DNA of 63,559 bases, the filler included. It is 7 parts of 7 records of this genome, joined end to end, with 100 filler letters (N's around TTAATTAATTAA, not from the genome) between each part and the next. Parts side by side here need not be neighbours in the genome. Positions count along the whole stretch, not along the records: positions 14,175 to 29,716 come from SRR20825010_100; 6 more parts are not named here. The stretch is one strand, 5' to 3'. Both the position numbers and the translations under genes were made by a program. Below the pieces are notes generated by a model. The model did not search any database. It was not told the DNA's origin and saw nothing but the letters and a program-made list of their open reading frames with translations. Positions 16,573 through 32,745 of the stretch are shown piece by piece. How positions within the stretch are numbered: the stretch's first letter is position 1; each line of letters starts with the position of its first letter.

Positions 16573-17147
16573 CTTGTGTCAGAAACTCAGGACATTGGCG
16601 GTATGATACACTTTAACTACATGAAATTATTAGAATTTAAGCCATTTTGAACAGAATTACGCATTCTGTTCAAAATATAGATTATAAGTCAACTTGTTTT
16701 GAGTGAGGTTATGAAGGGAAGGTTATCAACGTCATTATATGACACCTAAGGAAATCGGAAATATTTAACCCCGGAGAATACTCCAGGCGGGTGGTCTAAA
16801 ATTGGGGAGCACCTCATAACATCTGGATTTTCTTGTTCCAGGTGGCCCAAAGATGGGGGGCAAATTCATCAGCTGTCACAGCTAAAGCAAAATCACTCCA
16901 TTTGGTGGCATGGTCCTGGAGGAAAAACCGGCAGAATGGGAGCCTTCTATAACGTTACCGGATAACATGGAGCTCACAGCGGCAAAACTCCCTATCATTC
17001 CCCCAGAGAGAAGCTACAATAGATGCACGAAGAGTCCCACAAGGTCGTACATTCCTACACTAATTATTCGAGCTATATAAGAGACAGAACGGTTGGAGGT
17101 TGGCCTAATATTTAGTACTATTTATCAAATAACAGGAAATAGAACTG

Positions 17148-17945
17148 ATGAATAGTACAAGGTATATGGGAAATTTAGCAGCTCCTGATGTGGGCAAGGC
17201 CTTAACAGCAGGCTCAATTTTAATTTTGCCGGTGGGTGCAATGGAGCAGCATGGGCCCCATTTGCCGCTAAATACAGATACCATTCTGGCTGAGCGATTT
17301 GCGGGTAGGGTTATTGCGCGATGGGGCGATCAATATGATCTGTGGCAATTACCTTCATTTCCTTATGGGATTTCAGTCGAGCACAATTGGGCGGCGGGCA
17401 CTTTATCTCATTCGGCGGCTCTCTTTTGTGAGATAATTCATGAATTGATGCAAGAGCTTACAAGAACTCAGGCGGCGCGCAAGCTGGTTATTGTAAATGG
17501 GCACGGTGGGAATAGGGGCATTCTTGAAGTGTTAATACAGGAGATTCGCGTAAGGCATAGCATAATCGCGTGCGTGGTTCACCCAAGTGCCCTCTCTCCG
17601 GTCAAATCAAATTCTAAATGTATTGAGGTTCATGGCGGCAAGAGTGAAACTTCTATTTTGCTGGAGCTTGCGCCAGAATTAGTTGACATGAGCAAACTAA
17701 CTTTGACGGCTGAGAATTCAGATCAGGAGACTGTAAAGGAGCTAATTCTAAGCCGCGGGGCAACATGGCCCTGGTCATCTAATGATCAAGGAATTAGTAC
17801 AAGTGGCATTATTGGTGATCCACAATCTGCGACCATCGAATTAGGCAAACGTATTGTCGATGGGGCACTTGCTGAAATACCAAAGGTATTGAACAGATTG
17901 AACGAGCTGCATCAACAGACTCCGCACTCTAGGGACGGTGACTAG
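17148..17945 (+). CDS. Creatininase-family amidohydrolase
   Basis: LPVGAMEQHGPHLPLNTD, SVEH, VNGHGGN, HGGKSETS, GIIGDP motifs. Confidence 0.93.
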   Translation: MNSTRYMGNLAAPDVGKALTAGSILILPVGAMEQHGPHLPLNTDTILAERFAGRVIARWGDQYDLWQLPSFPYGISVEHNWAAGTLSHSAALFCEIIHELMQELTRTQAARKLVIVNGHGGNRGILEVLIQEIRVRHSIIACVVHPSALSPVKSNSKCIEVHGGKSETSILLELAPELVDMSKLTLTAENSDQETVKELILSRGATWPWSSNDQGISTSGIIGDPQSATIELGKRIVDGALAEIPKVLNRLNELHQQTPHSRDGD

Positions 17946-19197
17946 AACTTGCTTTGATTAGTTCTAAAAATGGAATTGCTCCTTCTGGTAGCACAGATTT
18001 AAGTGCCTCGGTCGTTCTTGCCAAGACAATCATGTCAATATCTTTATTATTATCTAAGCGGCGGATGAAGAACTCCCGGTCCGCGGCACCCCACAATGCA
18101 AGATACCGTATCAATGTCTCACATCCGACTAGCGCCCGTAGGCAAGCCATTATTTGCTCCGTTCCCACTTTTCGCTCTCGCAGAACCAAATCTATCAACG
18201 CCAGCGGAAAGTCTACTTGCATAGCTTTCGCCAACCACGCAAAACCGGCGCATACCCGAGGATTAATTTCATGAATTATAAAACCGTCTCCCGTGAAGCA
18301 TCCATCGACTCCAAACCCGCCTACATAGCCGCATTGTTTGACTAGCTTTCGCAAAGCATATGCAATTTGTTTTTTCGCTTCATTTAATTCTAATAGGTCT
18401 ATTGCCATTGCGCTAAGAATGCCCGGCGCATGGATACGGAAATTATTCGGATTCCAGTAGAGAAGAGCACTAACAGGACCGAATATAACTGTGTCATCCC
18501 CAATCACATAACCATAGAAGGTTGCAGGACGCCCTACCGAATACATAGATATTCGCACAGCATCATACTTGACGCAGACATGATCTAAGAATTGGCGTTT
18601 TCGTATGCATTCACTATCGGCGGGTAGCAAAAAAACGTCACTGCTACCCATGGCGAGATAATCTTTTGATACACCCGAAAAAACACAACTATTTTGTCCA
18701 ATCCATTTATCAATACTATTTAGCCCATCAGCTAATTTTGAAGTGCAAATATATTTCTGGATGAAATGCTGCTGAAAATTGGTGAGCTGAACTTGTTGCT
18801 GTTTTTGTTCAGCTAAGTACCATTCTTTTTTTCTGGCAGCCAAAACCCGTCGTCCGCTAATGGCATGAACATTCGCACAGGAGCCTGCATAAATTAAGGC
18901 TTTCGATCTTTCATCCAAGTTATCTAATTGCGCTATCCACGAAATATCGGGATTTGAAAGTTCTCTATTTTGCTGATCCAATTGGTGTGCAATGCTTGTT
19001 TTTTTTGGTGTCGAAGTAGGTAAATGATCTACCTTCTTGGCCCCCATCAACCGGAAAGCTGTTTCTAGGCCTTTTGAGCCAGCTGCTTGGCCCGTTAGTA
19101 TAATGTGTTCATTTGCTATGATCGGCGCGGCCGCATCAAAAACCTGCTTTTTTAAGTCTTGCGCAACGCTGGAAAATACTTGCATTATGGCCCCCAA
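17929..19197 (-). CDS. Divergent ATP-grasp-fold protein (putative amide ligase)
   Basis: YVGGFGVDG...IHEINPR C-terminal ATP-grasp signature. Confidence 0.65.
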   Translation of the reverse strand: MGAIMQVFSSVAQDLKKQVFDAAAPIIANEHIILTGQAAGSKGLETAFRLMGAKKVDHLPTSTPKKTSIAHQLDQQNRELSNPDISWIAQLDNLDERSKALIYAGSCANVHAISGRRVLAARKKEWYLAEQKQQQVQLTNFQQHFIQKYICTSKLADGLNSIDKWIGQNSCVFSGVSKDYLAMGSSDVFLLPADSECIRKRQFLDHVCVKYDAVRISMYSVGRPATFYGYVIGDDTVIFGPVSALLYWNPNNFRIHAPGILSAMAIDLLELNEAKKQIAYALRKLVKQCGYVGGFGVDGCFTGDGFIIHEINPRVCAGFAWLAKAMQVDFPLALIDLVLRERKVGTEQIMACLRALVGCETLIRYLALWGAADREFFIRRLDNNKDIDMIVLARTTEALKSVLPEGAIPFLELIKASSSHRP

Positions 19198-19826
19198 TCA
19201 ATCTCAAGCAATAGTCGGGGCAGTTCATTTAGAGATGGAATGATATTGGCATCATTGTTCAGCGGGTTCTCTACTTCGCCTTTCCTGCTGAGGAAGACGG
19301 CTTTCCATCCTGCATTGATTGCCCCACAGACATCATTTCGCCAGCTATCGCCAACATGAATGATATCGTGCCTCTCTTTTGCTAACGTCTTTTCCACATA
19401 TCGAAAAGCCCGGACATCAGGCTTTACATAGCCGAGTTCAAAAGAGTAGAAACTATGCTCGAAAAACGAGCCTAATAGTAACTTTCGTAAATCTCCTGAT
19501 TCCCACTGAGTACAGTTGCTAAAACTTACTAACTTATACCCTAATTCTTGAAGAGAAGTTAGGCATTGCGAGACTTCTTCAAAAATTTGGGCGCTCGGTT
19601 TCTCATACTTTTCAAGAAACAGCTCCGCGTCGGCGGTCCCTACCAGAGTGCATATTTTCTTAGTGACTGTCTCTATATTGCAGGGCTTGGTCAACGCTTC
19701 ACGAGACAGTAATGGACGTATTCGATCAATTGGAACCGCTAAATGTTGGCTTAGAGCATAACAAAACCCACCGCCATCAATATCAAGTAGCGTCCCACCC
19801 ACATCAAACGATACTATTTTTGCCAT
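19185..19826 (-). CDS. HAD-superfamily hydrolase/phosphatase
   Basis: FDVGGTL motif I, SN motif II, KPD motif III, HVGDSWRND motif IV. Confidence 0.92.
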   Translation of the reverse strand: MAKIVSFDVGGTLLDIDGGGFCYALSQHLAVPIDRIRPLLSREALTKPCNIETVTKKICTLVGTADAELFLEKYEKPSAQIFEEVSQCLTSLQELGYKLVSFSNCTQWESGDLRKLLLGSFFEHSFYSFELGYVKPDVRAFRYVEKTLAKERHDIIHVGDSWRNDVCGAINAGWKAVFLSRKGEVENPLNNDANIIPSLNELPRLLLEIDWGP

Positions 19827-20944
19827 AGCCCTAAAAATTCATTGGAGTTGAAGCGAATATATCCCTCATTAGGGACGATGTGTTGCCCCATAATCTTTTG
19901 CCGTTGAGGCTCAAGTATAGGATTGAACTCAGCAATACATGAATCGGGGTGGGAACGTGCAGCCATAAAATGGAGAGAAGTCATGAGCGCTTTTCCATGA
20001 GGAGCCAAAATAAGGCCCTGACCGTATACAAGACTGGCAACTCTACTAAAGGCGCGTATGCCCCCACATTGCAGAAGATCAGGCTGTAATGCCACTAATC
20101 CCTTACTATCGTATATTGAAAAGAAGTCTTGAATCGAAGTAAAAGTTTCGCCAGTTGCAAGAGGGCAGAGCCCATCCATTTCTTTCAACAATTCCTCTGT
20201 GTTGACGTCTGGTACGGGCTGCTCCAGCCATGAAAGCGACATTGAGCCAAGCGCTTGTATAAAGGCCATCGTATAGTCAATATTCCACCTTTGCCGGACT
20301 TCTACAAATAGCCGTCCATTTATTCCCAACACTTCGTATAGTTGACGAATTCGTCTTATATTACGCCGCAGCCCTTCCTCACCATCCGCAGGGCCATCCT
20401 GAAGCGCCCATTTTTGACAACTAAACCCTTCACTTCGAGCCTGTTCGGCAATTTCGCTAGTTTTATCACCATCAACGTTCAAGGTTATAAAGCTGAGATA
20501 TGTGGGGATATTGGTAACCATCCGAGCGTTGAGATGACTTGCTAAGCTTTCGTCTTGCTCACGCAAAGTCGCATCCCAAGTCGCACACTCCTTGGCTGAC
20601 TCAAATTCCAACCGAAGATTGGCCGGCAAAGTTGTCAAAAGCGAAACGAATTGATCATTGGAGAGAGTTAGAATACATAGATCTCCGAAAATCCTAGCCG
20701 CCAATTTTCTATCAGCAACTGGTATTGGGCCATACCGCCCCGTCATGGAGCCGCTAAGCTGTACTTCAATAATGACCCAACTTATATCGGGTATAGGATT
20801 CGCTTGATCCAAAGCCATACTGATCAGCCCTGAGAAAGGAGATGCCCTCCAAAAATCAATTGCTAAATACACATCCCAACTAGCTTGACCTGCTAGTTGA
20901 AGCGTTACCTTCTCAATGGACACTGCCCCAACTGATTTTAGCAT
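19814..20944 (-). CDS. Enolase superfamily (mandelate racemase/MLE-like) enzyme
   Basis: WLEQP, ATGE, LQPD..CGG, LAPHG barrel motifs; start overlaps the stop of the radical SAM gene. Confidence 0.8.
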   Translation of the reverse strand: MLKSVGAVSIEKVTLQLAGQASWDVYLAIDFWRASPFSGLISMALDQANPIPDISWVIIEVQLSGSMTGRYGPIPVADRKLAARIFGDLCILTLSNDQFVSLLTTLPANLRLEFESAKECATWDATLREQDESLASHLNARMVTNIPTYLSFITLNVDGDKTSEIAEQARSEGFSCQKWALQDGPADGEEGLRRNIRRIRQLYEVLGINGRLFVEVRQRWNIDYTMAFIQALGSMSLSWLEQPVPDVNTEELLKEMDGLCPLATGETFTSIQDFFSIYDSKGLVALQPDLLQCGGIRAFSRVASLVYGQGLILAPHGKALMTSLHFMAARSHPDSCIAEFNPILEPQRQKIMGQHIVPNEGYIRFNSNEFLGLWQK

Positions 20945-22008
20945 CTGCTCTCGCTCAGCTGCTCGCCCGCAAATTCAAAATACCAAAGTGGACGGTAATT
21001 CTCCCAGCCCATCGGCCGCATAGCTGTCTGGGAAAATAATTTCTCCATTTGCAGTCGAAAATCTAGATAGAAAGTTAAACTCTCAGCACCATGCGCTTGA
21101 TATTGATCCATCAGTCCATTGTGTGGTTGATAGACCTGAAAGTTTGGGAAGCGCGTTAAATGAGGGACCAGTTTCTCAATCTGTTGACATGCAAGTTCTA
21201 ACTCATCAAGGCCTACAATATAGGTGAAATCTGTTTCACATCCGGACTTCTTAGCGGATTCTAGAAGTTTGGGCATCAAATCAACGGTCAAACTGCTCTT
21301 TGAGGAACGCAGGATTTTATTTCTATTGGAGAAGCACTCGACTGTAAGAATCAAATGAAACTTATTAATTTCTCGGATGAGTGTTTTAAATGCGCCTTCA
21401 GTCCTAAGCTCTGAACTTAGGAAACCTATTACCGGTTCAGAATGAAGTTCTTTAAGGGCGCTTCTGACCATTAATATATGATCTATCGTCTCTTCTTCAC
21501 TCGGGAAACATCCTGTCGATAAATTGACTTCGATTAGATGGGATAGATCTTTCTTACCTTGTGCCCGAGCCAAGGCTTTAAAACTCTGCACAAGATCATC
21601 AGTTTCACGGTGGGGAGGATCTGATGCGCCTTCTAAAGTGTTAGGACAAAAGACACATCCCGTGCAGTGGCTTCTGGAATTTGAATTGAGGGTCATTACT
21701 GTTCCCTGCCGCCTGAAATACCCAGTGATTGCATTATCGTCCCGGCATTCATAGATTTCTGCGACAACGTCACCTGATAGATACAACTTACCGGAATCGA
21801 TGTGGAAGGGCGATTGCCACCTATTAGTAGAAAGAATGAACCGAAATTCTATATCCGGTTTAGCATCCATGCGTAGGCGCAATCGCAATCGAGGGCTGTC
21901 AACTTTATTCCTAAGGCCACACGCATTGAGCGCAATTAGTATTATATCTTCAGAACATATATTTTTGCTGTCGCCTAAATATTGGGCATCCTGAATTGAG
22001 TCCAACAT
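20938..22008 (-). CDS. Putative radical SAM enzyme with shortened CxxCxxC motif
   Basis: SHCTGCVFCPN; downstream LTVECF, FTYIVGLD, WENYRPLWY; GGAGGG RBS before ATG 22008. Confidence 0.72.
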   Translation of the reverse strand: MLDSIQDAQYLGDSKNICSEDIILIALNACGLRNKVDSPRLRLRLRMDAKPDIEFRFILSTNRWQSPFHIDSGKLYLSGDVVAEIYECRDDNAITGYFRRQGTVMTLNSNSRSHCTGCVFCPNTLEGASDPPHRETDDLVQSFKALARAQGKKDLSHLIEVNLSTGCFPSEEETIDHILMVRSALKELHSEPVIGFLSSELRTEGAFKTLIREINKFHLILTVECFSNRNKILRSSKSSLTVDLMPKLLESAKKSGCETDFTYIVGLDELELACQQIEKLVPHLTRFPNFQVYQPHNGLMDQYQAHGAESLTFYLDFRLQMEKLFSQTAMRPMGWENYRPLWYFEFAGEQLSESRC

Positions 22009-22025
22009 GTTAAATTCCCCTCCAT

Positions 22026-22889
22026 TTAAGTCTGCATTTTTTCCTTTAACCAAGCTCTTTGCAAACCCACCGCAGAGTCCGATTCACGAAGGTGTTTTTT
22101 AACGATTGGTTTTCTTCGATATTTTTGGCCTTGTGTGCCTATGACCCTAGTAATTGCAAGCTCCACAGGGGAAAGCTGCGCCCTGCGTGAATCGAAATTG
22201 AATTTGCCATGTAAAGGTATGGATGGATTGGTTATCGCGCGCCAGTTTCCACTACAATTTCTATTTCGGGCGTGCAGTAAGAAGGGATGCAGCAAGAAAA
22301 CGTCGCCGGCTTCTCCTTCTATGTAAATTTTTTCAGAGTTCTCGCAAGAGTGCCCGTCAAAAAAGTTATGCGCTATGCCTTCAGGATGATTACACAGTAC
22401 AGAAGCTACTTGTTTGATAGAATTAATTTGTATTGCTGTGCCCCCACTCTCCTGGGTGCAGGCTGTCCACAAAACAACACACACTAGGTTCACGCTCGCC
22501 CCATCAAGGTAGTGTTGTTGAAAGCCATCAATATGCCAGTTGGCTAAGCTGTTTTTTGTTTGATGAGGCGGTGCGACAACAAACCCATCACCCCATTCCA
22601 TTTCCTCTTCAGAAATGTTTCGGTTCACCAGTGTTTCTATTGCTGAGACAAGATTCGGTGCCTCCTCCTTAATTGAGAAGGAGTGCCGCCTTGGGAAATG
22701 AAGGTGTGATGTTTTTAGTTCTTGTTCAAGTTCGCTTCTATTTTCCAAAATCCACTTTCTAGTTGGCTTCCACCAATTTCGTGAAAATTCTGGTTCGAAT
22801 GCCTTTCTGACAGCCAAAAAACCGTTCTCAATGAAAAACGAAACTTCATTTTCAGACAGTTCCTTCGATGCAAGACTAGCTTCTAACAT
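22026..22889 (-). CDS. Phytanoyl-CoA dioxygenase (PhyH)-like Fe(II)/2OG oxygenase
   Basis: FIENGFLAVRKAF, WHIDG (HxD), GGT, GEAGDVFLLHPFLLH; ATG 22889 overlaps the upstream stop. Confidence 0.85.
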   Translation of the reverse strand: MLEASLASKELSENEVSFFIENGFLAVRKAFEPEFSRNWWKPTRKWILENRSELEQELKTSHLHFPRRHSFSIKEEAPNLVSAIETLVNRNISEEEMEWGDGFVVAPPHQTKNSLANWHIDGFQQHYLDGASVNLVCVVLWTACTQESGGTAIQINSIKQVASVLCNHPEGIAHNFFDGHSCENSEKIYIEGEAGDVFLLHPFLLHARNRNCSGNWRAITNPSIPLHGKFNFDSRRAQLSPVELAITRVIGTQGQKYRRKPIVKKHLRESDSAVGLQRAWLKEKMQT

Positions 22890-23685
22890 AGCCAGACTGC
22901 ATGGAATAAACGGCTTTTTCGAGAAACTTTGTCTGCTTATTCGGTTCACCCAATTCAGTCCACAAAGCTTCTTCAAAGTCGGAGACGCGGTTACCATATA
23001 GATGTTTCGCAGAGAATGATGTTGAGTAAAGACACCCTAAAATATCTTGGAACGACCAGGACCTTTCGACAGCGACTTCAGATTGCTCGACTTGCTCATA
23101 CCCATGCCTTAGCAGCATGTCGCTATATGGTTCCTTCGACGTTGAAAAATAGGCAGTTCCGGCTCTACGCTTCTCACCCAAAAATCGTTTAATGACCACT
23201 TTGATGGCTTTTTGCCAAGACTCTGACCCGGTCCAAAAACTGCCGTCACCAATTATGGCTATACCACCGCCTTCTCTTAGAAATCGGCGACCATTAACTA
23301 GAATTTTGTCTTGGTCCATCCAGTGAAATGCGCGGCTTATGGTTATCAAATCGACCGACTGAGGTTCAACTAGGACATCCTCGGCCTTAGCATTCAACCA
23401 AGAGACATTATTGACTGGATTAGGCCAGAGACTGCGCGCTTTTTCTGCCTCGCTAATCATCAACGGGTCAACATCAACACCGAGCACTTCTTTAACCTGC
23501 GCACTGATTGCTAGTGTGAGCTGCCCTGTGCCACAACCTAAATCCAGAACAACGCTGGTTTGGGGCACCAATTTAAACCGGGTCGATAGATACTCTATCA
23601 CTTCTGTTGGTATGTAAGGTCGATATTGCCGGTAGTGATGAGCGGTACCTGCAAAGAGCTCTCCATTCTTGTTTTCGGCAGTCAT
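22876..23685 (-). CDS. Class I SAM-dependent methyltransferase
   Basis: YRQYRP, VLDLGCGTG, GVD, AFHWMD. Confidence 0.92.
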   Translation of the reverse strand: MTAENKNGELFAGTAHHYRQYRPYIPTEVIEYLSTRFKLVPQTSVVLDLGCGTGQLTLAISAQVKEVLGVDVDPLMISEAEKARSLWPNPVNNVSWLNAKAEDVLVEPQSVDLITISRAFHWMDQDKILVNGRRFLREGGGIAIIGDGSFWTGSESWQKAIKVVIKRFLGEKRRAGTAYFSTSKEPYSDMLLRHGYEQVEQSEVAVERSWSFQDILGCLYSTSFSAKHLYGNRVSDFEEALWTELGEPNKQTKFLEKAVYSMQSGYVRS

Positions 23686-23717
23686 GTTAATTGTATGTTT
23701 CCTTTCCTGAGAATTGC

Positions 23718-25811
23718 TTAAAATAACTGCAAAACATGCTCAGAAATTGCAATATATCCAGCAGAATTTTCATCATATCGCCGTTGGCCGGCCAACCCCC
23801 GAGCACGTCCAACAAACCCCAGGATGTTGTGTCTTGAATGATCCGTGTCCCATAAAAGTGTCTTAATTGTACTAGTGTACCCTAAATACGCCCAAGTGCA
23901 ACCTGAGTGGCTATTTATACAATTAATAAAGGAGCGACACTCTGGGTCTTCCGGCCGTTCTAATAAGGTTAATTCATTTAATGCATAGAGCGTGATTTCC
24001 AGCGTTGGTGCTTTCTTCTTCAAATATTTGATTGCCAAAAGGCATTGATCAAGCATGTTATTGCCAATTGCAACCAGAGCCTGCGATGCTGCCCCCCCAC
24101 GCCTTACCTCTGTCCATAACTTGACACCATTGCTTAGCGGCAGCGAACGAAGTGGCTCTCGTGGAGCATTTTTTCCCATAACGACAACGTTTAAATGCGA
24201 TTGATCTGCTAGGCAGCTACTAATAATGTCTACAGCATCACGACTACCTGATGGCGTATATACTCGAAGCTGCTCGTGGCCTCGTGCTATCAAACTATCC
24301 ACAAATCCAGGGTTTTGGTGACTGGGGCAATTTTCCCACCCAAGACTGGTAAGCAAAAGCAGGGCGCTTGGATATTTCGTTTTCCCGTTGCAATGGGCCC
24401 GCCGTCCCAAAAAACGTAAATGTTGCATGGCGGCGCTATCACATAATGTTGCAAAAGCTTCATATGTCAAAAAGATGCCTCGTTTTCCCGAGGCTGAGTA
24501 CCCCAGAAGCCAAGAAAAACACAGTTGTTCATTCAATACTTCAAATATTTTTCCTGCAGGAGAGAAGCCATCGCTCCCGCCTTGAGGAGAATTTTGGTGC
24601 CGCAAATGTGTATGTTCTAAAAGTGAACCAAATCGATTTGATTCCAACTCATCTGGACTAAAGAAGATGAGATCGGATGTGTCTTTGTCCTTTATTGCTT
24701 TAACAAAAAAACTAGCGACATCCTGAATGAGTGAACTATTTGAAAGAGGATAAGTATATGATTTTAATTTTTTGTTGTTATTGATGCTGTTTTTTTCCGT
24801 CCCTAAACGCAATTCTAAAGGAGGCAATATCGATAGGGCTTGAGATACAAGTTTCCCGTCAACATCAAATAATGTTGATGGGTTGTATGAAAGTAGCCAT
24901 GATTCAACAGCCTTGGCTTCATCATCTGAATTGGCAGGATTTCTCAAAATTGGTTTGTGGCTCTTAGCTGACCCTACAAATTTCTCATCTTTAAAGTAGG
25001 TGGGCCCAGTCCATCCTTTTTCAGTAGTAAAAATTATGATCGGTTGCTGGAAATGTTTGGTATCAAGGCATAATTGTTCAAACGATTTTTGCGTTGCCAA
25101 GGCTAGCGTCTCGTGGTCATGAGCCCAGTAAACTTGAAGGTTGTATGCATTAAAATAATCACTGACCCTTTTTCTCGACCACATGGAAAACAATGAACGA
25201 CTGCCCATTCGAAAGTGATTTGCATTGACAATTGGCAGGACTGCTCCATCGATGTCTCTGGATAAAAACTCAAACCCTTGCCACGCTGACTGAGTGAGCG
25301 CGGTTTCCAATTCACCGTCACCTAATATGCAGACCGTTATAGTTCCAGCATTATTAATTGCGTAGCCTTGAGAAAAAGCAAGCGCGCCGCCCAATTCACC
25401 GCCACAGTAGTCAGTATTCGGATATTCTGGCGCTATCTCAGTATCAATCCCGTAGCTGGCCCCAAAGTCTCTAGTAAGGTTTGTTAAGCCCTGCATGTTT
25501 TGGGGATATCTTTTGTCAATTTGGAGGAAAGAACCCTCTAAAAACATTGACGCAGCTAATGCAGGGCCAGCATGCCCTGTGCCTACCACAAGTTTGGTGG
25601 GCACGTTATGATAACTAACTTGTGCGCATACATGCGCGTAAATGGCATTAATACCTGGAACACAGCCCCAATGACCAAAAACAGTGTCTTTAAAGTCCTT
25701 TTTTTCTAGGCCGCGCTGAAGAAGAACATTATCTTTGAGGTAAAGAAGAACACAGCTCACATAATTAGCGGCACGCCAGAACTGAACAATATTTGCAATT
25801 GGAACGCTCAT
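23718..25811 (-). CDS. Divergent phosphoketolase (XFP family, ThDP-dependent)
   Basis: WRAANY, GHWG, GTGHAG, GGELG, GDGE, FSPDELESNR, EVLNEQ, TYEAF, SHQNPG; 697 aa. Confidence 0.88.
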   Translation of the reverse strand: MSVPIANIVQFWRAANYVSCVLLYLKDNVLLQRGLEKKDFKDTVFGHWGCVPGINAIYAHVCAQVSYHNVPTKLVVGTGHAGPALAASMFLEGSFLQIDKRYPQNMQGLTNLTRDFGASYGIDTEIAPEYPNTDYCGGELGGALAFSQGYAINNAGTITVCILGDGELETALTQSAWQGFEFLSRDIDGAVLPIVNANHFRMGSRSLFSMWSRKRVSDYFNAYNLQVYWAHDHETLALATQKSFEQLCLDTKHFQQPIIIFTTEKGWTGPTYFKDEKFVGSAKSHKPILRNPANSDDEAKAVESWLLSYNPSTLFDVDGKLVSQALSILPPLELRLGTEKNSINNNKKLKSYTYPLSNSSLIQDVASFFVKAIKDKDTSDLIFFSPDELESNRFGSLLEHTHLRHQNSPQGGSDGFSPAGKIFEVLNEQLCFSWLLGYSASGKRGIFLTYEAFATLCDSAAMQHLRFLGRRAHCNGKTKYPSALLLLTSLGWENCPSHQNPGFVDSLIARGHEQLRVYTPSGSRDAVDIISSCLADQSHLNVVVMGKNAPREPLRSLPLSNGVKLWTEVRRGGAASQALVAIGNNMLDQCLLAIKYLKKKAPTLEITLYALNELTLLERPEDPECRSFINCINSHSGCTWAYLGYTSTIKTLLWDTDHSRHNILGFVGRARGLAGQRRYDENSAGYIAISEHVLQLF

Positions 25812-25816
25812 GAATT

Positions 25817-26260
25817 CTACCTTTTCTGCTGCTGGTAAGGCGTATTTTGTTGCTTGCGGCAGGAATTGAGAATTGTTTCAATGCGTGCGGACCTTATCGC
25901 CGCGGTCGAGGCTTCTCTGAGGAAAAGAAGAGCCTGCCTACGCTCCAGCGGACTCAAACAGTCGAAAGTCAGGCCGGCGAACGATAAAGCCTCTTGCAAA
26001 TCTCTCGGCGCTTTAAGGTTTTGGATAAATTTTTTAACCAGCAATTTACCCTTAATCGTCTCGTCTACTTTACACTCAAATTCTGAGGGAATAAAAACTA
26101 TAAGTATAGAGGAAACATCGACAATTTTAGTGGCAAAAACTTCGCCATTGACCTCGATTTTTGGGGACATCATGCTTCCCGGGAAATATTCTGGGCGGGG
26201 TAGCTCAATATACTTGTCATTCCCTTCCTCTAACACCTTTGTTTCAAATTCGAGCTTCAT
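25817..26260 (-). CDS. DUF1905 / YdeI-OmpD-associated (bacteriocin-protection-like) protein
   Basis: C-terminal PRDLQEAL...FDCLSPLERRQAL...EAST...RSARIE pattern; beta-rich N-terminus. Confidence 0.6.
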   Translation of the reverse strand: MKLEFETKVLEEGNDKYIELPRPEYFPGSMMSPKIEVNGEVFATKIVDVSSILIVFIPSEFECKVDETIKGKLLVKKFIQNLKAPRDLQEALSFAGLTFDCLSPLERRQALLFLREASTAAIRSARIETILNSCRKQQNTPYQQQKR

Positions 26261-27063
26261 CTGTTAGCCCTTGTAGTTGCAGTAATAGTCCGTAGTTTAG
26301 CCTTCTCGATAAAGCCTTTTCGGCTTCGATCTGCGGTGGCCAGAGCATCTCTGATCAAAGAAATTATTTGAGGTTGGAAATCCTCAACTATCCGCGGGGA
26401 ACAAATGTCTGTTGCAAATATCTGACCTATAATTTGTTCTTCTTGCCAACATCGTGTCAGAGAAATTTCTATTTTTTCCAAAACCCTAAATCCAGCTATA
26501 GACAAGCTTTCTTCAAAGGTCTCGACGGCCTGAATTCGAGTATTATCAGTCTCTGCGACAAGACCTTGTTGTACTAACCAGCCCCTAACGATGTCCTTTA
26601 TCGAATAGTTTCCATAGACCAGAGGCCCAGTCCCCAAGGGGCTATCACCCAAAATAGCTAAAACCCCGCCATCAATCAGAAACCGGCGAAGCATATTTAA
26701 GGTGTCTGCAGTCGGAAATAAATGAAATGACCTACCAATAACAGCCAATGTATAAGAACCTAGGACAAGGGGGAGTTCATTGAGATTTTCCGCCCTGCCG
26801 TGTTGCCAAATGATGTTGGCGTGAGATGCATGATGAGCGCCTTTTGCAGCCGTAATCATCGCAAGATCACTATCAATGCCTGTGACTTCTCGGGCATGTG
26901 GCGCGATCAGAGTTGTTAATTGGCCAGTTCCGCACCCGATGTCGAGAACCTTGGCCTCAGGAGTAAGGTTCGCATATTTTTTTAAATGCGGAATCAAGGC
27001 CGAAGGATAGCCCGGCCGAAATGCAAGGTCATATTCTGCTCGGCAAAAGGGATGCGGTTTCAA
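26257..27063 (-). CDS. Class I SAM-dependent methyltransferase (paralog of 22876..23685)
   Basis: FRPGYP, VLDIGCGTG, GID, GRSFH. Confidence 0.9.
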   Translation of the reverse strand: MKPHPFCRAEYDLAFRPGYPSALIPHLKKYANLTPEAKVLDIGCGTGQLTTLIAPHAREVTGIDSDLAMITAAKGAHHASHANIIWQHGRAENLNELPLVLGSYTLAVIGRSFHLFPTADTLNMLRRFLIDGGVLAILGDSPLGTGPLVYGNYSIKDIVRGWLVQQGLVAETDNTRIQAVETFEESLSIAGFRVLEKIEISLTRCWQEEQIIGQIFATDICSPRIVEDFQPQIISLIRDALATADRSRKGFIEKAKLRTITATTRANR

Positions 27064-27536
27064 ATTACCCCCCGATCGTGGAAGAGTACCGCAAATTCCT
27101 TACGAGCTTTTGAGCAAAACGCCTCAACTTCCCTTATGTCATGGGGGACGCGTGCTTTGAAAAGATCACTTTGAAAAAAAGGGCCGGGCCGTTTGTGGCG
27201 GATTTTTGAATGGTTGAAAACGGGTTGAATGATGAAGTGAATATGAGCACTCTGCCAGTTTGTATGAGCCCACAAACCCGCATATATCTGGTCACAATGC
27301 GTGAGATTGCGCACCACTTTTCCAGTTCCCGTGATAATTGGGCCAAGTTCTTTGGACTCTTCTACAGTTAAAGCGTCAATGCCAGTACAATGTCGCCACG
27401 GCTTCACAAGCATAGTCCCAATCCCAAGTGGCGCAAGTTCATGCTCAATTAGCCAATGCTCTGAGGCAAAAATGGTTCCTCCAGGTATACTTATTTCACG
27501 GCCTGAAATTTTACAGGCGTGGCATTCCTTGTTCAT
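27060..27536 (-). CDS. HIT-family nucleotide hydrolase-like protein
   Basis: N-terminal CHAC, GTMLVKPWRH, HIHFIIQP (variant triad); start at ATG 27536 after GGGGG. Confidence 0.78.
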   Translation of the reverse strand: MNKECHACKISGREISIPGGTIFASEHWLIEHELAPLGIGTMLVKPWRHCTGIDALTVEESKELGPIITGTGKVVRNLTHCDQIYAGLWAHTNWQSAHIHFIIQPVFNHSKIRHKRPGPFFQSDLFKARVPHDIREVEAFCSKARKEFAVLFHDRGVI

Positions 27537-27619
27537 AAGATTACCCCCCGACAACATCATGACTAAGATTCTAAAAATCAGCCCGCGATATGAACCCGGC
27601 ATTCCTACCTTGCGATAGG

Positions 27620-28963
27620 TTAGAGCAAGGTGACGCTCGCATTCAGTTTTCCATTTTTCGTGTAGATGAAATCTTCAGATATGACCCGCCCATTAAGACA
27701 ATGTCCTGTTGACTTGATAAATTTGGCCATATTTTCTTGTACTTTCATCATAGTTTTCTCATCACACTCTGGCCCTAGATTAATGTCGAAATAACCTTTT
27801 TTCCGCTGTACAACCTGAAAAGGAAAAACACCTAAATACTTCAAAATGTCAGTTATTTTCGCTGGACCAACTAACTCGTTCTGTTGACCAATAAAAGAAA
27901 CTGCGTACCGCCCTTCCAAAGCTGTAATAACTTTGCCCGATCTGCCACAGGCACAGTCAATACTCTCAATGCTACCTATATCTCCGGTATCAAATCGGAT
28001 TATTGGCATTAGGTTTGACTTCATCGAAGTGACAACAAGGCGACCTAGTTGACCATCTGGTAGTATTCCGCCGGAATTCATGTCTAGAACTTCTACAAAG
28101 GCTAAATCTTCTTCAATATGCATATTGCCCACTTTCGGGCATTGCCAAGCAACGAAACCAACCTCACTGCTGCCATATAAATCAATCACAGGGCAGTGAA
28201 AATAAGCCTCCAAGCTCTCTCGGACACCGGTATGCATCTGTTCAAAAGTCGAAACGATTGCCGTAAATTTCGGCCTTAGCCCGCGGCTCGCGCAAAAGCT
28301 CAAAAGACCTAGAAAGCGAGACGGAGCCCCAAAAGCATACCCGATATCTCGCTTCACTGTTTCCTCATACTCCAAAACAATATCTTTATTGGAGCTTGTG
28401 TATCTTCGTAAACGCCAAATCAAATGTTCGTCGGGCGCTGGCTCTACTGAAAGCAATGGTTCCGCTATCTGACCTTCGACATTTTCATACCTGGGTGAAA
28501 GGTCTATAACTTCACAATCAGCTCTCATCCCAAAATCGTTTTCTAACCGCCTTCGAAGCCCTTCATTAAAGACATATTCATCATTTAGAGATTTGATATG
28601 GGGTGTTGGTTGGCCAAGGCTGCCGCTCGAATGAGTGACTACGATCTGACCCGGGTTGTAATGTGATGAAACGAAATCGCCTAAATTGCTTAACAATACT
28701 TCATTGTTTATTACCGGGAAATCAGAGAGCCGCAACTGACCGCCTCGCTTTTGAACCAACTTTCTTAAGCTTTGTTTGTAAAATCCAACTGAACCAAATG
28801 CATGGGCCAGAGTTGCAAAGAGGTTTTCTAACCCTTTATCTGCTATCTTCTCAGGCCTGAACCCCACGCCCTGAATAGATAGAAAACGTTCCTTCCATTC
28901 AGGGGTGTCAAATTCTGATCGAAAATGTTCGCGCACTTGAAATATCGTTGCAGAATCAAGCAA
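27620..28963 (-). CDS. Phenylacetate-CoA ligase (PaaK/CapK)-like adenylate-forming enzyme
   Basis: HSSGSLGQP P-loop, DLYGSSEVG, FVEVLD, GRLVVT, PIIRFDTGD, EGR. Confidence 0.85.
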   Translation of the reverse strand: MLDSATIFQVREHFRSEFDTPEWKERFLSIQGVGFRPEKIADKGLENLFATLAHAFGSVGFYKQSLRKLVQKRGGQLRLSDFPVINNEVLLSNLGDFVSSHYNPGQIVVTHSSGSLGQPTPHIKSLNDEYVFNEGLRRRLENDFGMRADCEVIDLSPRYENVEGQIAEPLLSVEPAPDEHLIWRLRRYTSSNKDIVLEYEETVKRDIGYAFGAPSRFLGLLSFCASRGLRPKFTAIVSTFEQMHTGVRESLEAYFHCPVIDLYGSSEVGFVAWQCPKVGNMHIEEDLAFVEVLDMNSGGILPDGQLGRLVVTSMKSNLMPIIRFDTGDIGSIESIDCACGRSGKVITALEGRYAVSFIGQQNELVGPAKITDILKYLGVFPFQVVQRKKGYFDINLGPECDEKTMMKVQENMAKFIKSTGHCLNGRVISEDFIYTKNGKLNASVTLL

Positions 28964-28972
28964 TAAATTTAC

Positions 28973-29389
28973 TCAAGCAACAGTTATTGGCCTATGTTCA
29001 ATATATCCGAGAAACGCACGGCCGCCTGTCGTGCGAATATCAGGTGTTAGGATCACATCAACTAAGCTAGGCTTTTTCCAGCCCTCAGATGGCCGAACAG
29101 AGATTTCGTTTGTAGCGGAGATGTCAAAATCGACATCTACAAACTGGTTATCAACACGAATCAAAACACTATCAGCGGTCACGCTTGCAGGATCGATTGT
29201 ACCGTCCAGCTCAAAGGTCATGTATCTTGCACCAGACTTTGGCTTTGGCCCGGGAGCGGGAAACTGTATCTTGGGGATATCTTTTTCATAATCGAAGCCC
29301 CAGTCCATGGCCCTCAAAAGCCCATGGCCGTGTAACGTACCTACTTCAAGAATTCTCGCGGCAACGTCATTTTTGCTCATTTTCGCCAT
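28973..29389 (-). CDS. 138-aa protein with C-terminal bacterial Ig-like (Big_5/SbsA-type) domain, no signal peptide
   Basis: TFELDGTIDPASVTADSV...ISVRPSEGW...VILTPDIRTTGGRA resembles the Big_5 pattern; first gene of the operon. Confidence 0.55.
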   Translation of the reverse strand: MAKMSKNDVAARILEVGTLHGHGLLRAMDWGFDYEKDIPKIQFPAPGPKPKSGARYMTFELDGTIDPASVTADSVLIRVDNQFVDVDFDISATNEISVRPSEGWKKPSLVDVILTPDIRTTGGRAFLGYIEHRPITVA

Positions 29390-29604
29390 GTCTATTATCC
29401 ATTTGTTTAGAGTGATTGAATAAAACTCAATACAAATGAAACTGAATACATCAATGGGTAGTGTACGAACTTTTGAATACGCTTCAAGTGTGTATATTAG
29501 TGACATGAGCGATAAAATTACAATCAATGCAGGAAATTTTCTATAGAAAACATGTTCGCTACCCATTTCCTCTCCGATCTGAGCTCGGTACTGTCCCAAT
29601 GCTA

Positions 29605-32735: not shown

Positions 32736-32745
32736 GTTTATATGA

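Follow-up and report, generated by a model that had tools for sequence, protein, structure and literature searches.

A 13-gene locus in the window, by which we mean the whole 63,559-nucleotide stretch of DNA that we analyzed, is probably a specialized small-molecule operon that combines a mobile six-gene core with lineage-specific tailoring genes. Gene arrangement and content support the view that the 13 genes form one coherent operon whose enzymes look biosynthetic, built around unusual phosphoketolase-like and radical-SAM-like proteins. Its product is best read as a small molecule derived from a sugar and tailored by amide ligation in a lineage-specific way.

Layout of the window and flanks of the cluster

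The window is made up of seven unrelated pieces separated by 100-bp linkers of N and TTAATTAATTAA. One of these pieces, 15.5 kb long (14175-29716), carries the cluster; the join at 14075-14174 opens it, and the join at 29717-29816, read directly, closes it.

6809-6908, 14075-14174, 29717-29816, 39135-39234, 46009-46108, and 54050-54149: six 100-bp joins (44 N + TTAATTAATTAA + 44 N), located by script
14360-16572, minus: left flank of the cluster piece, mobile-element genes (Pfam; PHROGs phrog_56, phrog_66, and phrog_95), comprising the next four
14360-14668, minus: phrog_4996-like ORF
14619-15590, minus: Dam-like D12 DNA methyltransferase
15481-15792, minus: AlpA/excisionase-like HTH_17 protein
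15910-16572, minus: serine-recombinase fragment without the catalytic N-terminal domain

The initial annotation placed the cluster on a mobile island, AT-richer than the phage relics beside it. The phage-like genes from 29817 onward belong to a different piece, and their adjacency to the cluster rests on an artificial join; the GC contrast (44.5% in the cluster versus 56.7% in the phage-like DNA) is therefore uninformative about an island. The sole physically linked flank is the left one, with its integrase fragment, excisionase-like gene, and Dam-like methyltransferase, and on the cluster's own piece it is this flank that supports a presumed mobility. The earlier remark that no NRPS/PKS or transporter is in view holds in that no transporter, regulator, or NRPS gene was found on the piece at 14175-29716, which stops 117 to 327 bp upstream of the first operon gene.

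Operon architecture

As first described, twelve co-oriented genes are closely packed: the minus-strand ORFs run from 29389 (or 29599) down to 17929 with spacings of -14 to +32 nt, and a creatininase gene is convergent with them, overlapping the 3' end of the ATP-grasp gene by 17 nt.

28973-29389, minus: small protein at the head of the operon, Ig-like (Big_5-like) at its C terminus (Pfam Big_5 E 0.11, short of the cut-off)
27620-28963, minus: PaaK/F390-synthetase-like adenylate-forming ligase (NCBIfam DVU_1553 family 1.5e-33, PaaK 4e-19)
27060-27602, minus: candidate HIT-like nucleotide-binding protein, a weak call (NCBIfam ATP adenylyltransferase E 7e-4)
26257-27063, minus: MT1, class I SAM-dependent methyltransferase, paralogue of MT2 (Pfam Methyltransf_25 3e-14)
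25817-26260, minus: YdeI/OmdA-like small protein, core member (Pfam OmdA 2.5e-4, 21.4 bits versus a cut-off of 25.6)
23718-25811, minus: phosphoketolase-like ThDP enzyme of a noncanonical "Glu-type" lineage (Pfam XFP_N 1.4e-71, XFP 2.9e-34)
22876-23685, minus: MT2, class I SAM-dependent methyltransferase, core member (Pfam Methyltransf_25 3e-17)
22026-22889, minus: PhyH-like Fe(II)/2-oxoglutarate oxygenase, weak (Pfam PhyH 22.8 to 23.3 bits versus a cut-off of 22)
20938-22008, minus: radical-SAM-fold protein with a CX2CX2C motif (C130, C133, C136), at fold level only
19814-20944, minus: enolase-superfamily enzyme of the mandelate-racemase (MR) subgroup type (Pfam MR_MLE_C 1.3e-26)
19185-19826, minus: HAD-fold hydrolase, motif I atypical and reading D-V-G-G-T (Pfam Hydrolase 2e-11)
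17929-19197, minus: ATP-grasp ligase (weak Pfam/NCBIfam matches; fold level)
17148-17945, plus: creatininase-family metal-dependent amidohydrolase (Pfam Creatininase 1.5e-55)

The original domain calls differ in strength. Those for the creatininase, HAD, enolase C-terminal, phosphoketolase, and PaaK-like proteins and for both methyltransferases are strong, those for the radical SAM and ATP-grasp proteins hold at fold level only, and those for the PhyH, YdeI/OmdA, HIT, and Ig-like proteins are weak. The reading frame of the Ig-like gene is open as far as a TTG at 29599, and a start there would give the protein a hydrophobic N terminus; an Atlas feature search matched the protein to Big_5 clusters with a score of 0.95. 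For the HIT-like protein, a Pfam search up to E 10 gave no match, and the PDB match was the HIT-family entry 3ksv (E 0.024). Because the Ig-like, HIT-like, and window ATP-grasp genes had no counterpart in related loci (n = 9 for the Ig-like gene) and the PaaK-like protein has one close relative only among 5.8 billion proteins (P0244, 45% identity), the full 13-gene combination is nearly unique. We counted this against the small-molecule reading, as we did the lack of a transporter or regulator on the cluster's piece.

A conserved core in related loci

A genome scan found at least nine related loci, and the counts given here are among the matches listed. The six-gene core consists of the radical-SAM-fold CX2CX2C protein, the phosphoketolase-like enzyme, the MR-type enolase, the HAD-like protein, a methyltransferase, and the YdeI-like protein. 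Among these matches it is carried by Shimazuella soli, by Streptomyces plasmids, by plasmids of Nocardia farcinica, pNF1 among them, and by a Mycobacterium intracellulare plasmid, with a reduced core on 30 Clostridium perfringens plasmids, including pCPF5603. The core spans Bacillota and Actinomycetota, mostly on plasmids; the radical-SAM-like gene is present on 39 plasmid records. It adjoins the phosphoketolase-like gene in all nine related loci among the matches listed, and by tblastn the enolase-like and HAD-like genes are each found in seven of the nine, as is an MT2-like gene (30 to 40% identity). Six metagenomic pairs of phosphoketolase-like and radical-SAM-like matches agree in longest-contig size, an indirect sign of co-occurrence. 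No short ORF was conserved across the related loci.

The pCPF5603-family cluster shares with the window the radical-SAM-like (37% identity), Glu-type phosphoketolase-like (32%), HAD-like (26%), and PaaK-like (26%, a 419-amino-acid protein) genes and a class I methyltransferase. It has no gene for the enolase-like, YdeI-like, PhyH, creatininase, or ATP-grasp protein; in their place are genes for a PHP-domain protein, a BtrH-like protein, two NRPS-type adenylation enzymes, acyl carrier proteins (ACPs), and an ABC-2 transporter. Plasmid operons of S. goshikiensis, S. avidinii, and S. virginiae share the radical-SAM-like, phosphoketolase-like, enolase-like, YdeI-like, HAD-like, and methyltransferase genes, together with recurrent creatininase and PhyH-family genes. 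They encode Sua5/YrdC and an APH-type kinase rather than the PaaK-like, HIT-like, ATP-grasp, second methyltransferase, and Ig-like proteins, and their creatininase gene (45% identity, measured in S. goshikiensis and S. avidinii) is co-directional, whereas that of the window is convergent. In Streptomyces plasmids the immediate neighbors of the cassette include CRISPR-Cas loci, which belong to two distinct types, and restriction/HNH endonuclease genes are nearby. The M. intracellulare relative adds an MFS transporter; the Nocardia relative adds extra radical SAM enzymes and has a GntR regulator, a nucleoside hydrolase, and pyrF nearby; and the Shimazuella locus adds an S9 peptidase and an ATP-grasp protein and has a 109-amino-acid ORF. 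Nucleotide-handling accessories across the variants are a GGDEF-like protein, NUDIX, and the Sua5/YrdC and APH-type kinase pair. We counted the relatives' NRPS-type adenylation domains, ACPs, BtrH-like protein, transporters, extra radical SAM enzymes, and S9 peptidase with ATP-grasp on the side of biosynthesis.

The initial annotation did not recognize the gene combination, and we likewise found no characterized counterpart: no characterized cluster or catabolic operon matched. It had named such a match, or genes that never co-occur elsewhere, as grounds against its reading; since nothing characterized matched and the core occurs together in Shimazuella and actinomycete plasmids, neither was found.

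A noncanonical phosphoketolase-like enzyme

The XFP N-terminal and central domains of the ThDP enzyme are strongly assigned. It has in common with the canonical xylulose-5-phosphate/fructose-6-phosphate phosphoketolases of Bifidobacterium (3AHC, 3AI7) a three-domain architecture and the ThDP motif GDGE...N. However, the window enzyme is 27 to 32% identical to them and about 100 residues shorter, and unlike them it falls below every NCBIfam phosphoketolase cut-off (422.6 bits versus 777 for phosphoketolase). Its gene lies in a tailoring-enzyme operon, whereas canonical genes lie with central metabolism. In a tree built with FastTree only and containing several long branches, the window enzyme fell outside the starred, 71-row canonical clade, as did all 14 cluster-linked rows.

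In the comparison of 3ahc with 3ahh, E125 aligns with His142 of BbPK, a substrate-pocket residue that is replaced by Glu in 57/57 noncanonical alignment rows. Gln546 is deleted, His548 is variable, and the Gln321 position is Lys in nine of ten Glu-type loci. Equivalents of His64, His97, His320, His553, Asn549, and Tyr501 are kept. Passages of PMC6435721 and PMC10547157 assign His97 to dehydration of the dihydroxyethyl-ThDP intermediate, and His64, Tyr501, and Asn549 to phosphate attack. With roles taken from those passages, the enzyme retains the residues for ThDP activation and binding, dehydration, and phosphate attack, and its substrate pocket is remodeled. None of 78 His-type phosphoketolase loci had a radical-SAM-like neighbor; one Glu-type gene, in L002 (Sulfopaludibacter), also had none, which we counted against the small-molecule reading.

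Other core enzymes

The radical-SAM-like ORF reaches a TTG at 22053; its likely start is the ATG at 22008, which follows a GGAGGGG ribosome-binding site. The protein had no Pfam match, its family had no sequence match to any solved structure, and it had no match in 50,697 phage records. We found 259 homologues, and C130, G132, C133, F135, and C136 are invariant among 41 sequences. In a Foldseek search with its AlphaFold model (pLDDT 87.7), all top matches were radical SAM enzymes (E 5e-6 to 1e-4, TM ~0.4), namely MgmA, LipA, viperin-like enzymes, SkfB, BioB, and HydE; the RiPP maturases SkfB, SuiB, and PsnB occur among the fold matches of this model and the ATP-grasp model taken together. The model thus confirms a radical SAM identity at the level of predicted fold only.

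The closest PDB matches of the enolase-like protein are the MR/MLE entry 3sqs (2e-22) and galactonate and rhamnonate dehydratases, and seven aligned cluster-linked copies all keep the active-site pattern K, D/E, E, E, D, H, E. In the HAD-like protein, Gly stands at position +2 from the nucleophile Asp in seven of seven cluster-linked copies, and the usual acid/base Asp is absent. The phosphoketolase-like, acid-sugar-dehydratase-like, and HAD enzymes would also suit sugar catabolism, which we counted against biosynthesis. MT1 and MT2 are 30% identical. A YdeI-like profile that we built matches the window and all seven nonclostridial related loci (L001 and L082 to L087) and nothing in the C. perfringens loci; the protein is fused to a GGDEF-like domain in L082 and to the HAD-like protein in L087.

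Tailoring genes

Every NCBIfam score of the PaaK-like protein is below the equivalog cut-off, and its PDB matches are phenylacetate-CoA ligases (2e-15); NCBIfam also gave a weak DdaG match among the window proteins (E 0.005). The PhyH-like ORF extends to 22997, with a likely start at the ATG at 22889, and its translation has a visible HxD motif (WHIDG) and distal His; annotation also places PhyH-family genes in clusters L082, L084, L085, and L089. For the ATP-grasp protein, a profile of 41 sequences placed nothing but ATP-grasp entries at the top of the PDB list. With the AlphaFold model (pLDDT 90.6), Foldseek matches to PurK, PurT, and the ATP-grasp peptide ligase 8ynq had E values near 1e-9, which confirms the identity at the level of modeled fold only. 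The initial annotation pointed to creatininase-family enzymes that act as deacylases or peptidases in apramycin and mycofactocin pathways. The creatininase protein of the cluster does match the mycofactocin enzyme MftE (1.6e-37) but stays below the equivalog cut-offs for MftE (129 versus 172 bits) and creatininase (92 versus 235), and the parallel was not supported; it also matches IolN, a 3-dehydro-scyllo-inosose hydrolase (7e-13).

Alternative readings of the locus

A catabolic or salvage operon is unlikely. An unusual sugar, sugar acid, or deoxy-sugar would enter the cell, lose water through the action of the enolase-type enzyme, lose its phosphate, and be split by the phosphoketolase-like enzyme into acetyl phosphate and a central metabolite. 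The retained dehydration and phosphorolysis machinery of the phosphoketolase, the kinship of the enolase-like protein with acid-sugar dehydratases, the IolN match, and the GntR regulator adjoining the Nocardia cluster all fit, and a passage of the review PMC4810218 labels the pCPF5603 enterotoxin-plasmid genes "putative metabolic genes." However, such a route has no obvious place for two methyltransferases, a radical-SAM-fold enzyme, and adenylating and ATP-grasp ligases; an uptake system, a kinase, and a dehydrogenase are all absent from the window operon; the related clusters encode BtrH-like proteins, ACPs, and NRPS-type adenylation domains along with ABC-2/MFS transporters of the exporter type; and occurrence is patchy and on plasmids. 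Slightly less likely still is a conflict system whose product, a modified nucleotide or an analogue of a nucleoside, would act on phages or competitors as a chain terminator or antimetabolite, in the manner of viperin. The carriage of the cassette on mobile elements and plasmids, the CRISPR-Cas and endonuclease neighbors, the viperin-like fold matches, and the nucleotide-handling accessories (with the Nocardia nucleoside hydrolase and pyrF and the possible HIT protein of the window) would suit this, but the viperin matches are no better than those to LipA, BioB, and HydE, and no PADLOC system matched, the lone match being to the methyltransferase domain of mad2. The absence of phage-record matches to the radical-SAM-like protein and of a nucleoside-specific enzyme in the window operon also speaks against it, and the relatives' exporters and NRPS parts suggest a secreted product.

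Nikkomycin/polyoxin and dapdiamide-type Trojan-horse dipeptide pathways use radical SAM enzymes, Fe/2OG oxygenases, phosphatase-fold proteins, and ATP-grasp or PaaK-like ligases, and this generic toolkit, with an amidohydrolase, is present in the window. A peptidyl-nucleoside or cofactor pathway, as the initial annotation proposed, is nevertheless improbable. The analogy and its nucleoside product are not supported: no nucleoside-building or nucleotide-sugar-specific enzyme, and no enolpyruvyl-transferase, nucleotidyl-sugar, or aminotransferase domain, occurs among the 13 proteins; the radical-SAM-like family lacks sequence matches to solved structures; and the creatininase is below the MftE cut-off with no other mycofactocin gene present. 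To our knowledge, the phosphoketolase-like protein has no role in nikkomycin/polyoxin or cofactor pathways, and neither it, an MR-type enolase, nor a CX2CX2C radical-SAM-like protein is part of peptidyl-nucleoside or dapdiamide pathways. We give very little credence to a RiPP-type pathway. There, the radical SAM, ATP-grasp, and methyltransferase enzymes would modify a ribosomally made peptide, and a creatininase/MftE-like peptidase would cut it. The MftE similarity, the maturases among the fold matches, and the Shimazuella peptidase and 109-amino-acid ORF point that way, but with no gap larger than 32 nt the operon could not conceal a precursor gene, the related loci share no conserved small ORF, and the phosphoketolase-like, enolase, and HAD enzymes of the core are not RiPP tools.

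A proposed pathway

For the small-molecule operon that we favor, we infer every chemical step from family membership. The ThDP enzyme would cleave a nonstandard ketose-type substrate (HOCH2-CO-CHOH-R), yielding an acyl phosphate plus a fragment that is an aldehyde, and the enolase-type enzyme would work on a (hydroxy)acid intermediate bearing an alpha-proton. The radical enzyme and the methyltransferases would decorate the skeleton. In the window version, the PhyH-type oxygenase would hydroxylate this skeleton, amide-linked acyl or amino-acid groups would be added by the ATP-grasp ligase and the PaaK-like adenylating enzyme, and the creatininase-family amidohydrolase may strip off a peptidyl or acyl group, either to mature the product or to protect the producer. 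The sugar-amino acid product suggested in the initial annotation is a reasonable proposal. Whatever the operon makes is likely exported and would serve the host of the mobile element as an antimetabolite or a signal.

Layout and physical context of the cluster

The cluster lies on a single 15.5-kb piece of the window (14175-29716) and consists of twelve co-oriented minus-strand ORFs and one convergent gene. With the most plausible starts, neighboring genes are spaced from -14 to +32 nt, and we therefore read the set as one operon plus a convergent partner.

Features of the cluster piece and the joins of the window
29389 (29599 by longest ORF) down to 17929, minus strand: the twelve co-oriented ORFs
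17148-17945, opposite to the twelve ORFs: convergent gene (creatininase)
15910-16572, minus strand: serine-recombinase gene with Recombinase and zinc-ribbon domains, lacking the catalytic N-terminal resolvase domain
6809-6908, 14075-14174, 29717-29816, 39135-39234, 46009-46108 and 54050-54149: joins, each 100 bp (44 N + TTAATTAATTAA + 44 N)

Seven pieces make up the window, with GC contents, in order, of 40.1, 57.2, 45.5, 56.7, 57.1, 32.2 and 31.4%. Reading the DNA directly and by script showed that all six joins are identical, so inference from adjacency across them is invalid. The phage-like genes to the right of the cluster belong to the piece that starts at 29817, separate from the cluster piece, and the GC contrast with them therefore carries no information. 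The initial annotation had placed the cluster on a mobile island beside phage relics; since those genes sit beyond an artificial join, that context is partly an artifact, and the window illustrates how impressions of an island can arise from concatenated contigs.

A mobile-element neighborhood is supported on one side only, by the predicted genes of the left flank on the same piece: a serine-recombinase fragment, an excisionase-like HTH_17 protein, a Dam-like methyltransferase and a phage-family ORF. The recombinase gene is probably a truncated relic: it lacks the resolvase domain, and of the 651 positions in an integrase profile it covers just 241-430. Between the first cluster gene and the upstream end of the piece there are 117-327 bp, so the operon may have further genes upstream. 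A repeat search of the cluster piece found no att-like flanking repeats (short chance matches only), Rfam found no riboswitch or other RNA in it, and a promoter and terminator scan returned sites no more numerous than in shuffled sequence.

The pieces at 1-6808, 46109-54049 and 54150-63559 have a GC content of 31-40% and carry genes of Bacteroidota type (DUF5686, DUF2911 and CarboxypepD_reg), housekeeping genes included, while those at 6909-14074, 29817-39134 and 39235-46008 have a GC content of about 57% and carry proteobacterial-looking housekeeping genes and phage-like genes. Together the pieces look like a mixed assembly or a bin of several organisms. One 57% GC piece holds rpiA, ilvA, ygfA and a 6S RNA gene (13770-13953, minus strand; Rfam RF00013, 97.5 bits) that adjoins the 5-formyltetrahydrofolate cyclo-ligase gene (13140-13739) in the classic ssrS-ygfA pairing. 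Piece ends interrupt genes, for example those for a phosphoglucomutase (fragment at 46123) and an EPSP synthase (fragment ending at 54045).

Family assignments of the 13 proteins

Most of the domain labels in the initial annotation were borne out by strong Pfam or NCBIfam matches, and radical SAM and ATP-grasp held by predicted fold; the PhyH, YdeI, HIT and Ig-like labels proved weak. The strong matches include the HAD hydrolase, the two class I methyltransferases MT1 and MT2 (30% identical to each other), and the PaaK/F390-synthetase-like adenylating enzyme (NCBIfam, 1.5e-33; PaaK in the PDB, 2e-15). The PhyH protein barely passes (22.8-23.3 bits versus a cut-off of 22), the YdeI/OmdA match falls short (21.4 versus 25.6 bits), the HIT call rests on NCBIfam (7e-4) and PDB (0.024) matches with no Pfam match, and the Ig-like call rests on Pfam Big_5 (E value of 0.11) and an Atlas feature score of 0.95. 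The Pfam score of the ATP-grasp protein misses the cut-off (16.8 versus 27 bits), but its predicted model (pLDDT 90.6) gave only ATP-grasp enzymes among the Foldseek matches listed to rank 46, at about 1e-9, including PurK, PurT, biotin carboxylase and a Streptomyces ATP-grasp peptide ligase.

The convergent gene matched Pfam Creatininase at 1.5e-55 (188.6 bits versus a cut-off of 31.3) and fell below the equivalog cut-offs for MftE (129.3 versus 172 bits) and creatininase (92 versus 235 bits). By these profile scores its predicted product is a creatininase-family member that is neither MftE nor creatininase proper. A mycofactocin-like cofactor pathway was considered and rejected: beyond the subthreshold MftE-like match, NCBIfam found no mycofactocin family among the 13 proteins, and MftA, MftB, MftC, MftD and MftF are absent.

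A core of the cluster recurs on plasmids of several genera

The closest relatives of the cluster proteins are metagenomic, with up to 48% identity for the phosphoketolase-like protein and up to 55% for the radical-SAM-like protein. In six metagenomic pairs of these two proteins, the longest contigs were of equal size (19697, 30401, 17399, 821681, 13663 and 20294 bp), an indirect sign of linkage. A tblastn search of 72,556 plasmids with the radical-SAM-like protein returned 39 records, from Clostridium perfringens (30 plasmids of 70-77 kb), Streptomyces (5), Nocardia (3) and Mycobacterium (1).

Annotated neighborhoods of related loci
Shimazuella soli (L001): GGDEF-like, ATP-grasp, YdeI-like, radical-SAM-like (44% identity), methyltransferase, enolase-like, phosphoketolase-like and S9 peptidase genes in one row
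Streptomyces sp. NBC_01216 (L082): radical-SAM-like, enolase, HAD, GGDEF-YdeI fusion, phosphoketolase, PhyH, methyltransferase, NUDIX
S. goshikiensis (L084), S. avidinii (L085) and S. virginiae (L089): radical-SAM-like, phosphoketolase-like, enolase, YdeI-like, HAD, methyltransferase, creatininase, PhyH, Sua5/YrdC; APH-type kinase opposite
N. farcinica plasmids (L083 and L090), including pNF1: core plus GGDEF-like, two further radical SAM proteins and a second methyltransferase
M. intracellulare subsp. chimaera plasmid (L087): GGDEF-like, radical-SAM-like, enolase, HAD-YdeI fusion, phosphoketolase-like, MFS transporter, methyltransferase
C. perfringens, including pCPF5603: ABC-2 transporter, BtrH-like, adenylating enzyme, ACP, PaaK-like, HAD, adenylation-domain protein, radical-SAM-like, phosphoketolase, PHP-domain, methyltransferase

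When nine related loci were searched by tblastn, all nine had a phosphoketolase-like gene, and the MT2-like, enolase-like and HAD-like genes were each found in seven. The creatininase (45% identity) and the PaaK-like gene were each found in two; S. virginiae, outside the nine-locus count, supplies a third annotated creatininase. A profile search found the YdeI-like domain in the window and in all seven nonclostridial loci tested. The Ig-like, HIT-like and ATP-grasp genes of the window had no counterpart in the related loci by tblastn, nor did the ATP-grasp gene have a tblastn match in plasmids. For the PaaK-like gene there was a single close relative, the metagenomic protein P0244 (45% identity), whose contig equals in size that of P0128, a radical-SAM-like match. 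Based on these results, we describe the cluster as a widespread core joined by rare tailoring genes. The cluster as a whole had no megablast match in Escherichia coli genomes and plasmids.

The initial annotation had left open whether these genes ever co-occur elsewhere. They do: the core, made up of radical-SAM-like, phosphoketolase-like, enolase-like, HAD-like, MT2-like and YdeI-like genes, recurs together in Shimazuella soli and on actinomycete plasmids, and a reduced set is found on C. perfringens plasmids. The C. perfringens radical-SAM-like match had 37.5% identity and the same E value in 29 of the 30 plasmids (including NC_007773.1, pCPF5603) and 35.5% identity in the other. From these matches, the gene appears to be conserved within this 70-77 kb plasmid family.

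A phosphoketolase relative with an altered substrate pocket

The phosphoketolase-like protein matched XFP_N (1.4e-71) and XFP (2.9e-34), with XFP_C just below the cut-off, and it has the ThDP motif GDG...N, in which G164, D165, G166, E167 and N198 are invariant. Its best NCBIfam phosphoketolase score, 422.6 bits, is below the curated threshold of 777. We placed it in a FastTree phylogeny of 128 sequences, which has several long branches and in which linkage to a radical-SAM-like gene is known for 14 rows. The 71 ordinary-length phosphoketolases formed one clade with a FastTree support of 100, and all 14 linked sequences fell outside this canonical clade, as did the window copy.

We then took the alignment columns in which the 71 canonical rows are conserved at 95% or more and examined them in the other 57 rows. 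Residues H47, H80, H285, H498, Y450 and N494, which correspond to His64, His97, His320, His553, Tyr501 and Asn549 of the Bifidobacterium phosphoketolase (BbPK), are kept, as is the ThDP motif. At the position of BbPK His142, all 57 noncanonical rows have Glu (E125 in the window protein); Gln546 is deleted in all 57, and His548 is variable. An alignment check paired E125 with the sole residue that differs between PDB entries 3ahc and 3ahh, where the former has His and the latter Ala. This residue is number 162 of the chain and, once a 20-residue tag is subtracted, number 142 of the native enzyme. In PMC6435721, His97 is described as donating the proton when the dihydroxyethyl-ThDP intermediate is dehydrated, His142 and Gly155 as speeding up this step, and His64, Tyr501 and Asn549 as forming the phosphate site. 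PMC10547157 describes an H142N variant with a smaller pocket, improved 8.5-fold with glycolaldehyde and 3.6-fold with erythrulose. Since the catalytic and phosphate-binding residues are kept but substrate-pocket residues are changed, we infer that the Glu-type lineage would retain ThDP-dependent cleavage, dehydration and phosphorolysis and act on a different substrate.

A phosphoketolase-like profile scan of genome contigs gave 80 loci among the matches listed, mostly canonical phosphoketolases, with His at the BbPK His142 position in 78 and Glu in 2 (L001 and L002). Among 88 loci, the genome-scan part of which comprises the matches listed, none of the 78 His-type genes had a radical-SAM-like neighbor, and all eight plasmid loci fetched via the radical-SAM-like gene had a Glu-type neighbor. 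Of the two Glu-type genes among the scan matches listed, that of Shimazuella soli has a radical-SAM-like partner, and that of a Candidatus Sulfopaludibacter metagenome-assembled genome (L002, 9950-12145) does not; the latter lies beside an SDR gene, a 3-hydroxyisobutyrate-dehydrogenase-like gene and a gene for an 8xMP membrane protein. The Glu-type lineage thus occurs in at least one further genomic setting.

A radical-SAM-fold protein with a CX2CX2C motif

The radical-SAM-like protein matched no Pfam family and had no meaningful PDB sequence match, alone or as a profile, and precomputed PF04055 (Radical_SAM) assignments were present on only 3 of 120 listed homologues. A model predicted from 41 homologues (pLDDT 87.7) matched only radical SAM enzymes in the PDB by Foldseek through rank 24 (E values of 5e-6 to 3e-4; TM score of about 0.4), with MgmA, LipA, viperin-like, SkfB, BioB and HydE as the top matches. 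As predicted, the fold is the partial (beta/alpha)6 TIM barrel of the radical SAM superfamily. In that superfamily, a [4Fe-4S] cluster is bound by the three Cys of a CX3CX2C motif, which sits in the loop that follows strand 1 of the barrel. In the 41 sequences, C130, G132, C133, F135 and C136 are invariant, and the cysteine spacing is CX2CX2C rather than the canonical CX3CX2C. The motif nevertheless falls in the expected place in the model, in the loop between the first barrel strand (119-122) and a helix (137-140), and its three cysteines could bind an iron-sulfur cluster. We know of no characterized radical SAM enzyme with this spacing.

Enolase-like and HAD-like enzymes

The enolase-like protein matched MR_MLE_C at 1.3e-26 (94 bits versus a cut-off of 29.4). 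In the mandelate racemase subgroup, the barrel domain carries three acidic residues that bind metal, together with a Lys on strand 2 and a dyad of His (strand 7) and Asp (strand 6). Seven cluster-linked copies conserve K (QKW), D/E, E, GE, D (QPD), H (PHG) and E, which, with strands assigned by pattern, is the order expected for this subgroup. The nearest solved relatives are acid-sugar dehydratases; this and the residue pattern point to a substrate that would be an intermediate bearing a carboxylate and an alpha-proton that can be abstracted.

The HAD-like enzyme has motifs II to IV (S/T, K and GDxxxD) in the cluster-linked copies, but motif I reads D-x-G-(G/D)-T in all seven rather than the canonical DxDx(T/V). 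The second Asp of motif I is the general acid/base in HAD phosphatases, and known members without it are dehalogenases, phosphonatase and P-type ATPases. With Gly at this position, "phosphatase" is not a safe label.

Proposed function and alternatives

We consider it reasonably probable that the cluster directs the biosynthesis of a specialized small molecule, probably one that is exported. A radical enzyme, two methyltransferases, an oxygenase, two carboxylate-activating ligases and an amidohydrolase fit biosynthesis better than catabolism, as do the NRPS-type adenylation domains, ACPs, BtrH-like protein, peptidases and exporter-type transporters of the relatives. Our confidence in any specific reaction scheme is far lower. 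In one such scheme, the Glu-type ThDP enzyme would split a ketose-type intermediate into an acyl phosphate and an aldehyde fragment, the enolase-type enzyme would process a hydroxy-acid intermediate, and the radical enzyme and methyltransferases would modify the skeleton. In the window version, the PhyH-type enzyme might hydroxylate this skeleton, the PaaK-like and ATP-grasp ligases might add acyl or amino-acid groups, and the creatininase-family enzyme might take off an acyl or peptidyl group.

A catabolic or salvage operon would suit the intact phosphoketolase chemistry and the dehydratase-like enolase, and the sole published mention that we found of any version of the cassette, a passage of a review (PMC4810218), calls the pCPF5603 genes "putative metabolic genes." Such an operon leaves the tailoring and ligase genes unexplained, as well as the NRPS parts in the relatives, and we regard it as unlikely. 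Location on plasmids and integrative elements, the two CRISPR-Cas types that adjoin the cluster in Streptomyces plasmids, and the nucleotide-handling accessories of different variants would be in keeping with a nucleotide-analogue conflict system. However, PADLOC 2.0 found no defense system (11 of the 13 proteins had no hit, and MT1 and MT2 matched only the methyltransferase part of mad2), and the radical-SAM-like protein had no tblastn match in phage records, which leaves this explanation a slightly longer shot again.

The peptidyl-nucleoside or cofactor pathway proposed in the initial annotation would be expected to resemble nikkomycin and polyoxin clusters, which have an enolpyruvyl-UMP-forming transferase and nucleoside tailoring enzymes. 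The window cluster has neither by Pfam and NCBIfam, in which none of the 13 proteins matched a domain that is EPSP-synthase-like or specific to nucleosides. A nucleoside product is thus unsupported, and with its defining components missing we hold this pathway to be quite improbable. The defining components of a RiPP pathway are likewise missing from the cluster, and we give that origin very little credence.

Within the biosynthetic reading that we favor, a bolder proposal can be made, which we offer tentatively and expect may well fail. The six-gene core would be an unrecognized mobile biosynthetic pathway that combines a Glu-type ThDP enzyme acting on a non-sugar-phosphate substrate with a CX2CX2C radical-SAM-fold enzyme, with chemistry undescribed for either superfamily. 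The pathway would yield a sugar-derived antimetabolite or signal of a new class and be spread by plasmids and integrative elements among Actinomycetota, Bacillota and the window's host, including C. perfringens, N. farcinica and M. intracellulare plasmids, for intermicrobial or antiphage conflict.

Full-text searches of open-access papers and preprints found no description of this gene combination, and the few comentions of "phosphoketolase" with "radical SAM" in the literature searched included none relevant by title. We therefore provisionally treat the cassette as uncharacterized and file the locus as an orphan small-molecule biosynthetic operon whose core enzyme pair may represent categorically new chemistry. 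The observed gene cluster is real and worth follow-up. If our reading holds, this orphan pathway contains two enzyme lineages of undescribed chemistry, a phosphoketolase relative with a rebuilt substrate pocket and a radical-SAM-fold protein with unfamiliar Cys spacing. The cassette is not a one-off, as it crosses phyla on plasmids (the pCPF5603 family, N. farcinica pNF1 and M. intracellulare subsp. chimaera), and identifying the product would assign a function to a widespread accessory module and might uncover a novel antimetabolite scaffold as well as novel ThDP and radical chemistry.

Genes that accompany the cassette

A GGDEF-like protein of about 200-240 amino acids is encoded in the cassettes of Shimazuella soli (L001, 4619-5290), N. 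farcinica (L083, 14852-15478), Streptomyces sp. NBC_01216 (L082, 14932-16095, N-terminal half) and M. intracellulare (L087, 11255-11971); in L082 it is fused to the YdeI-like domain. We found no GGDEF-like gene in the window, and neither C. perfringens nor the remaining Streptomyces plasmids have one. Its place seems to be filled by various nucleotide-using enzymes, Sua5/YrdC in some versions and PaaK-like or HIT-like proteins in others.

Both N. farcinica loci (L083 and L090, about 6400-10600) have, just upstream of the cluster, an extra plasmid-borne pyrF (OMP decarboxylase) gene, a nucleoside hydrolase gene and a GntR regulator gene. CRISPR-Cas loci immediately precede the clusters of S. 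avidinii (L085, 1-3069) and S. virginiae (L089, 1-6181), and they are of two types, I-U and I-E. In L084, L085 and L089, the genes ahead of the cluster include an HTH regulator and DUF397 pair and then a small "ATP-binding protein" gene. The HTH and DUF397 pair is also found upstream in Nocardia L083 and L090, and L082 has HTH-type genes only.
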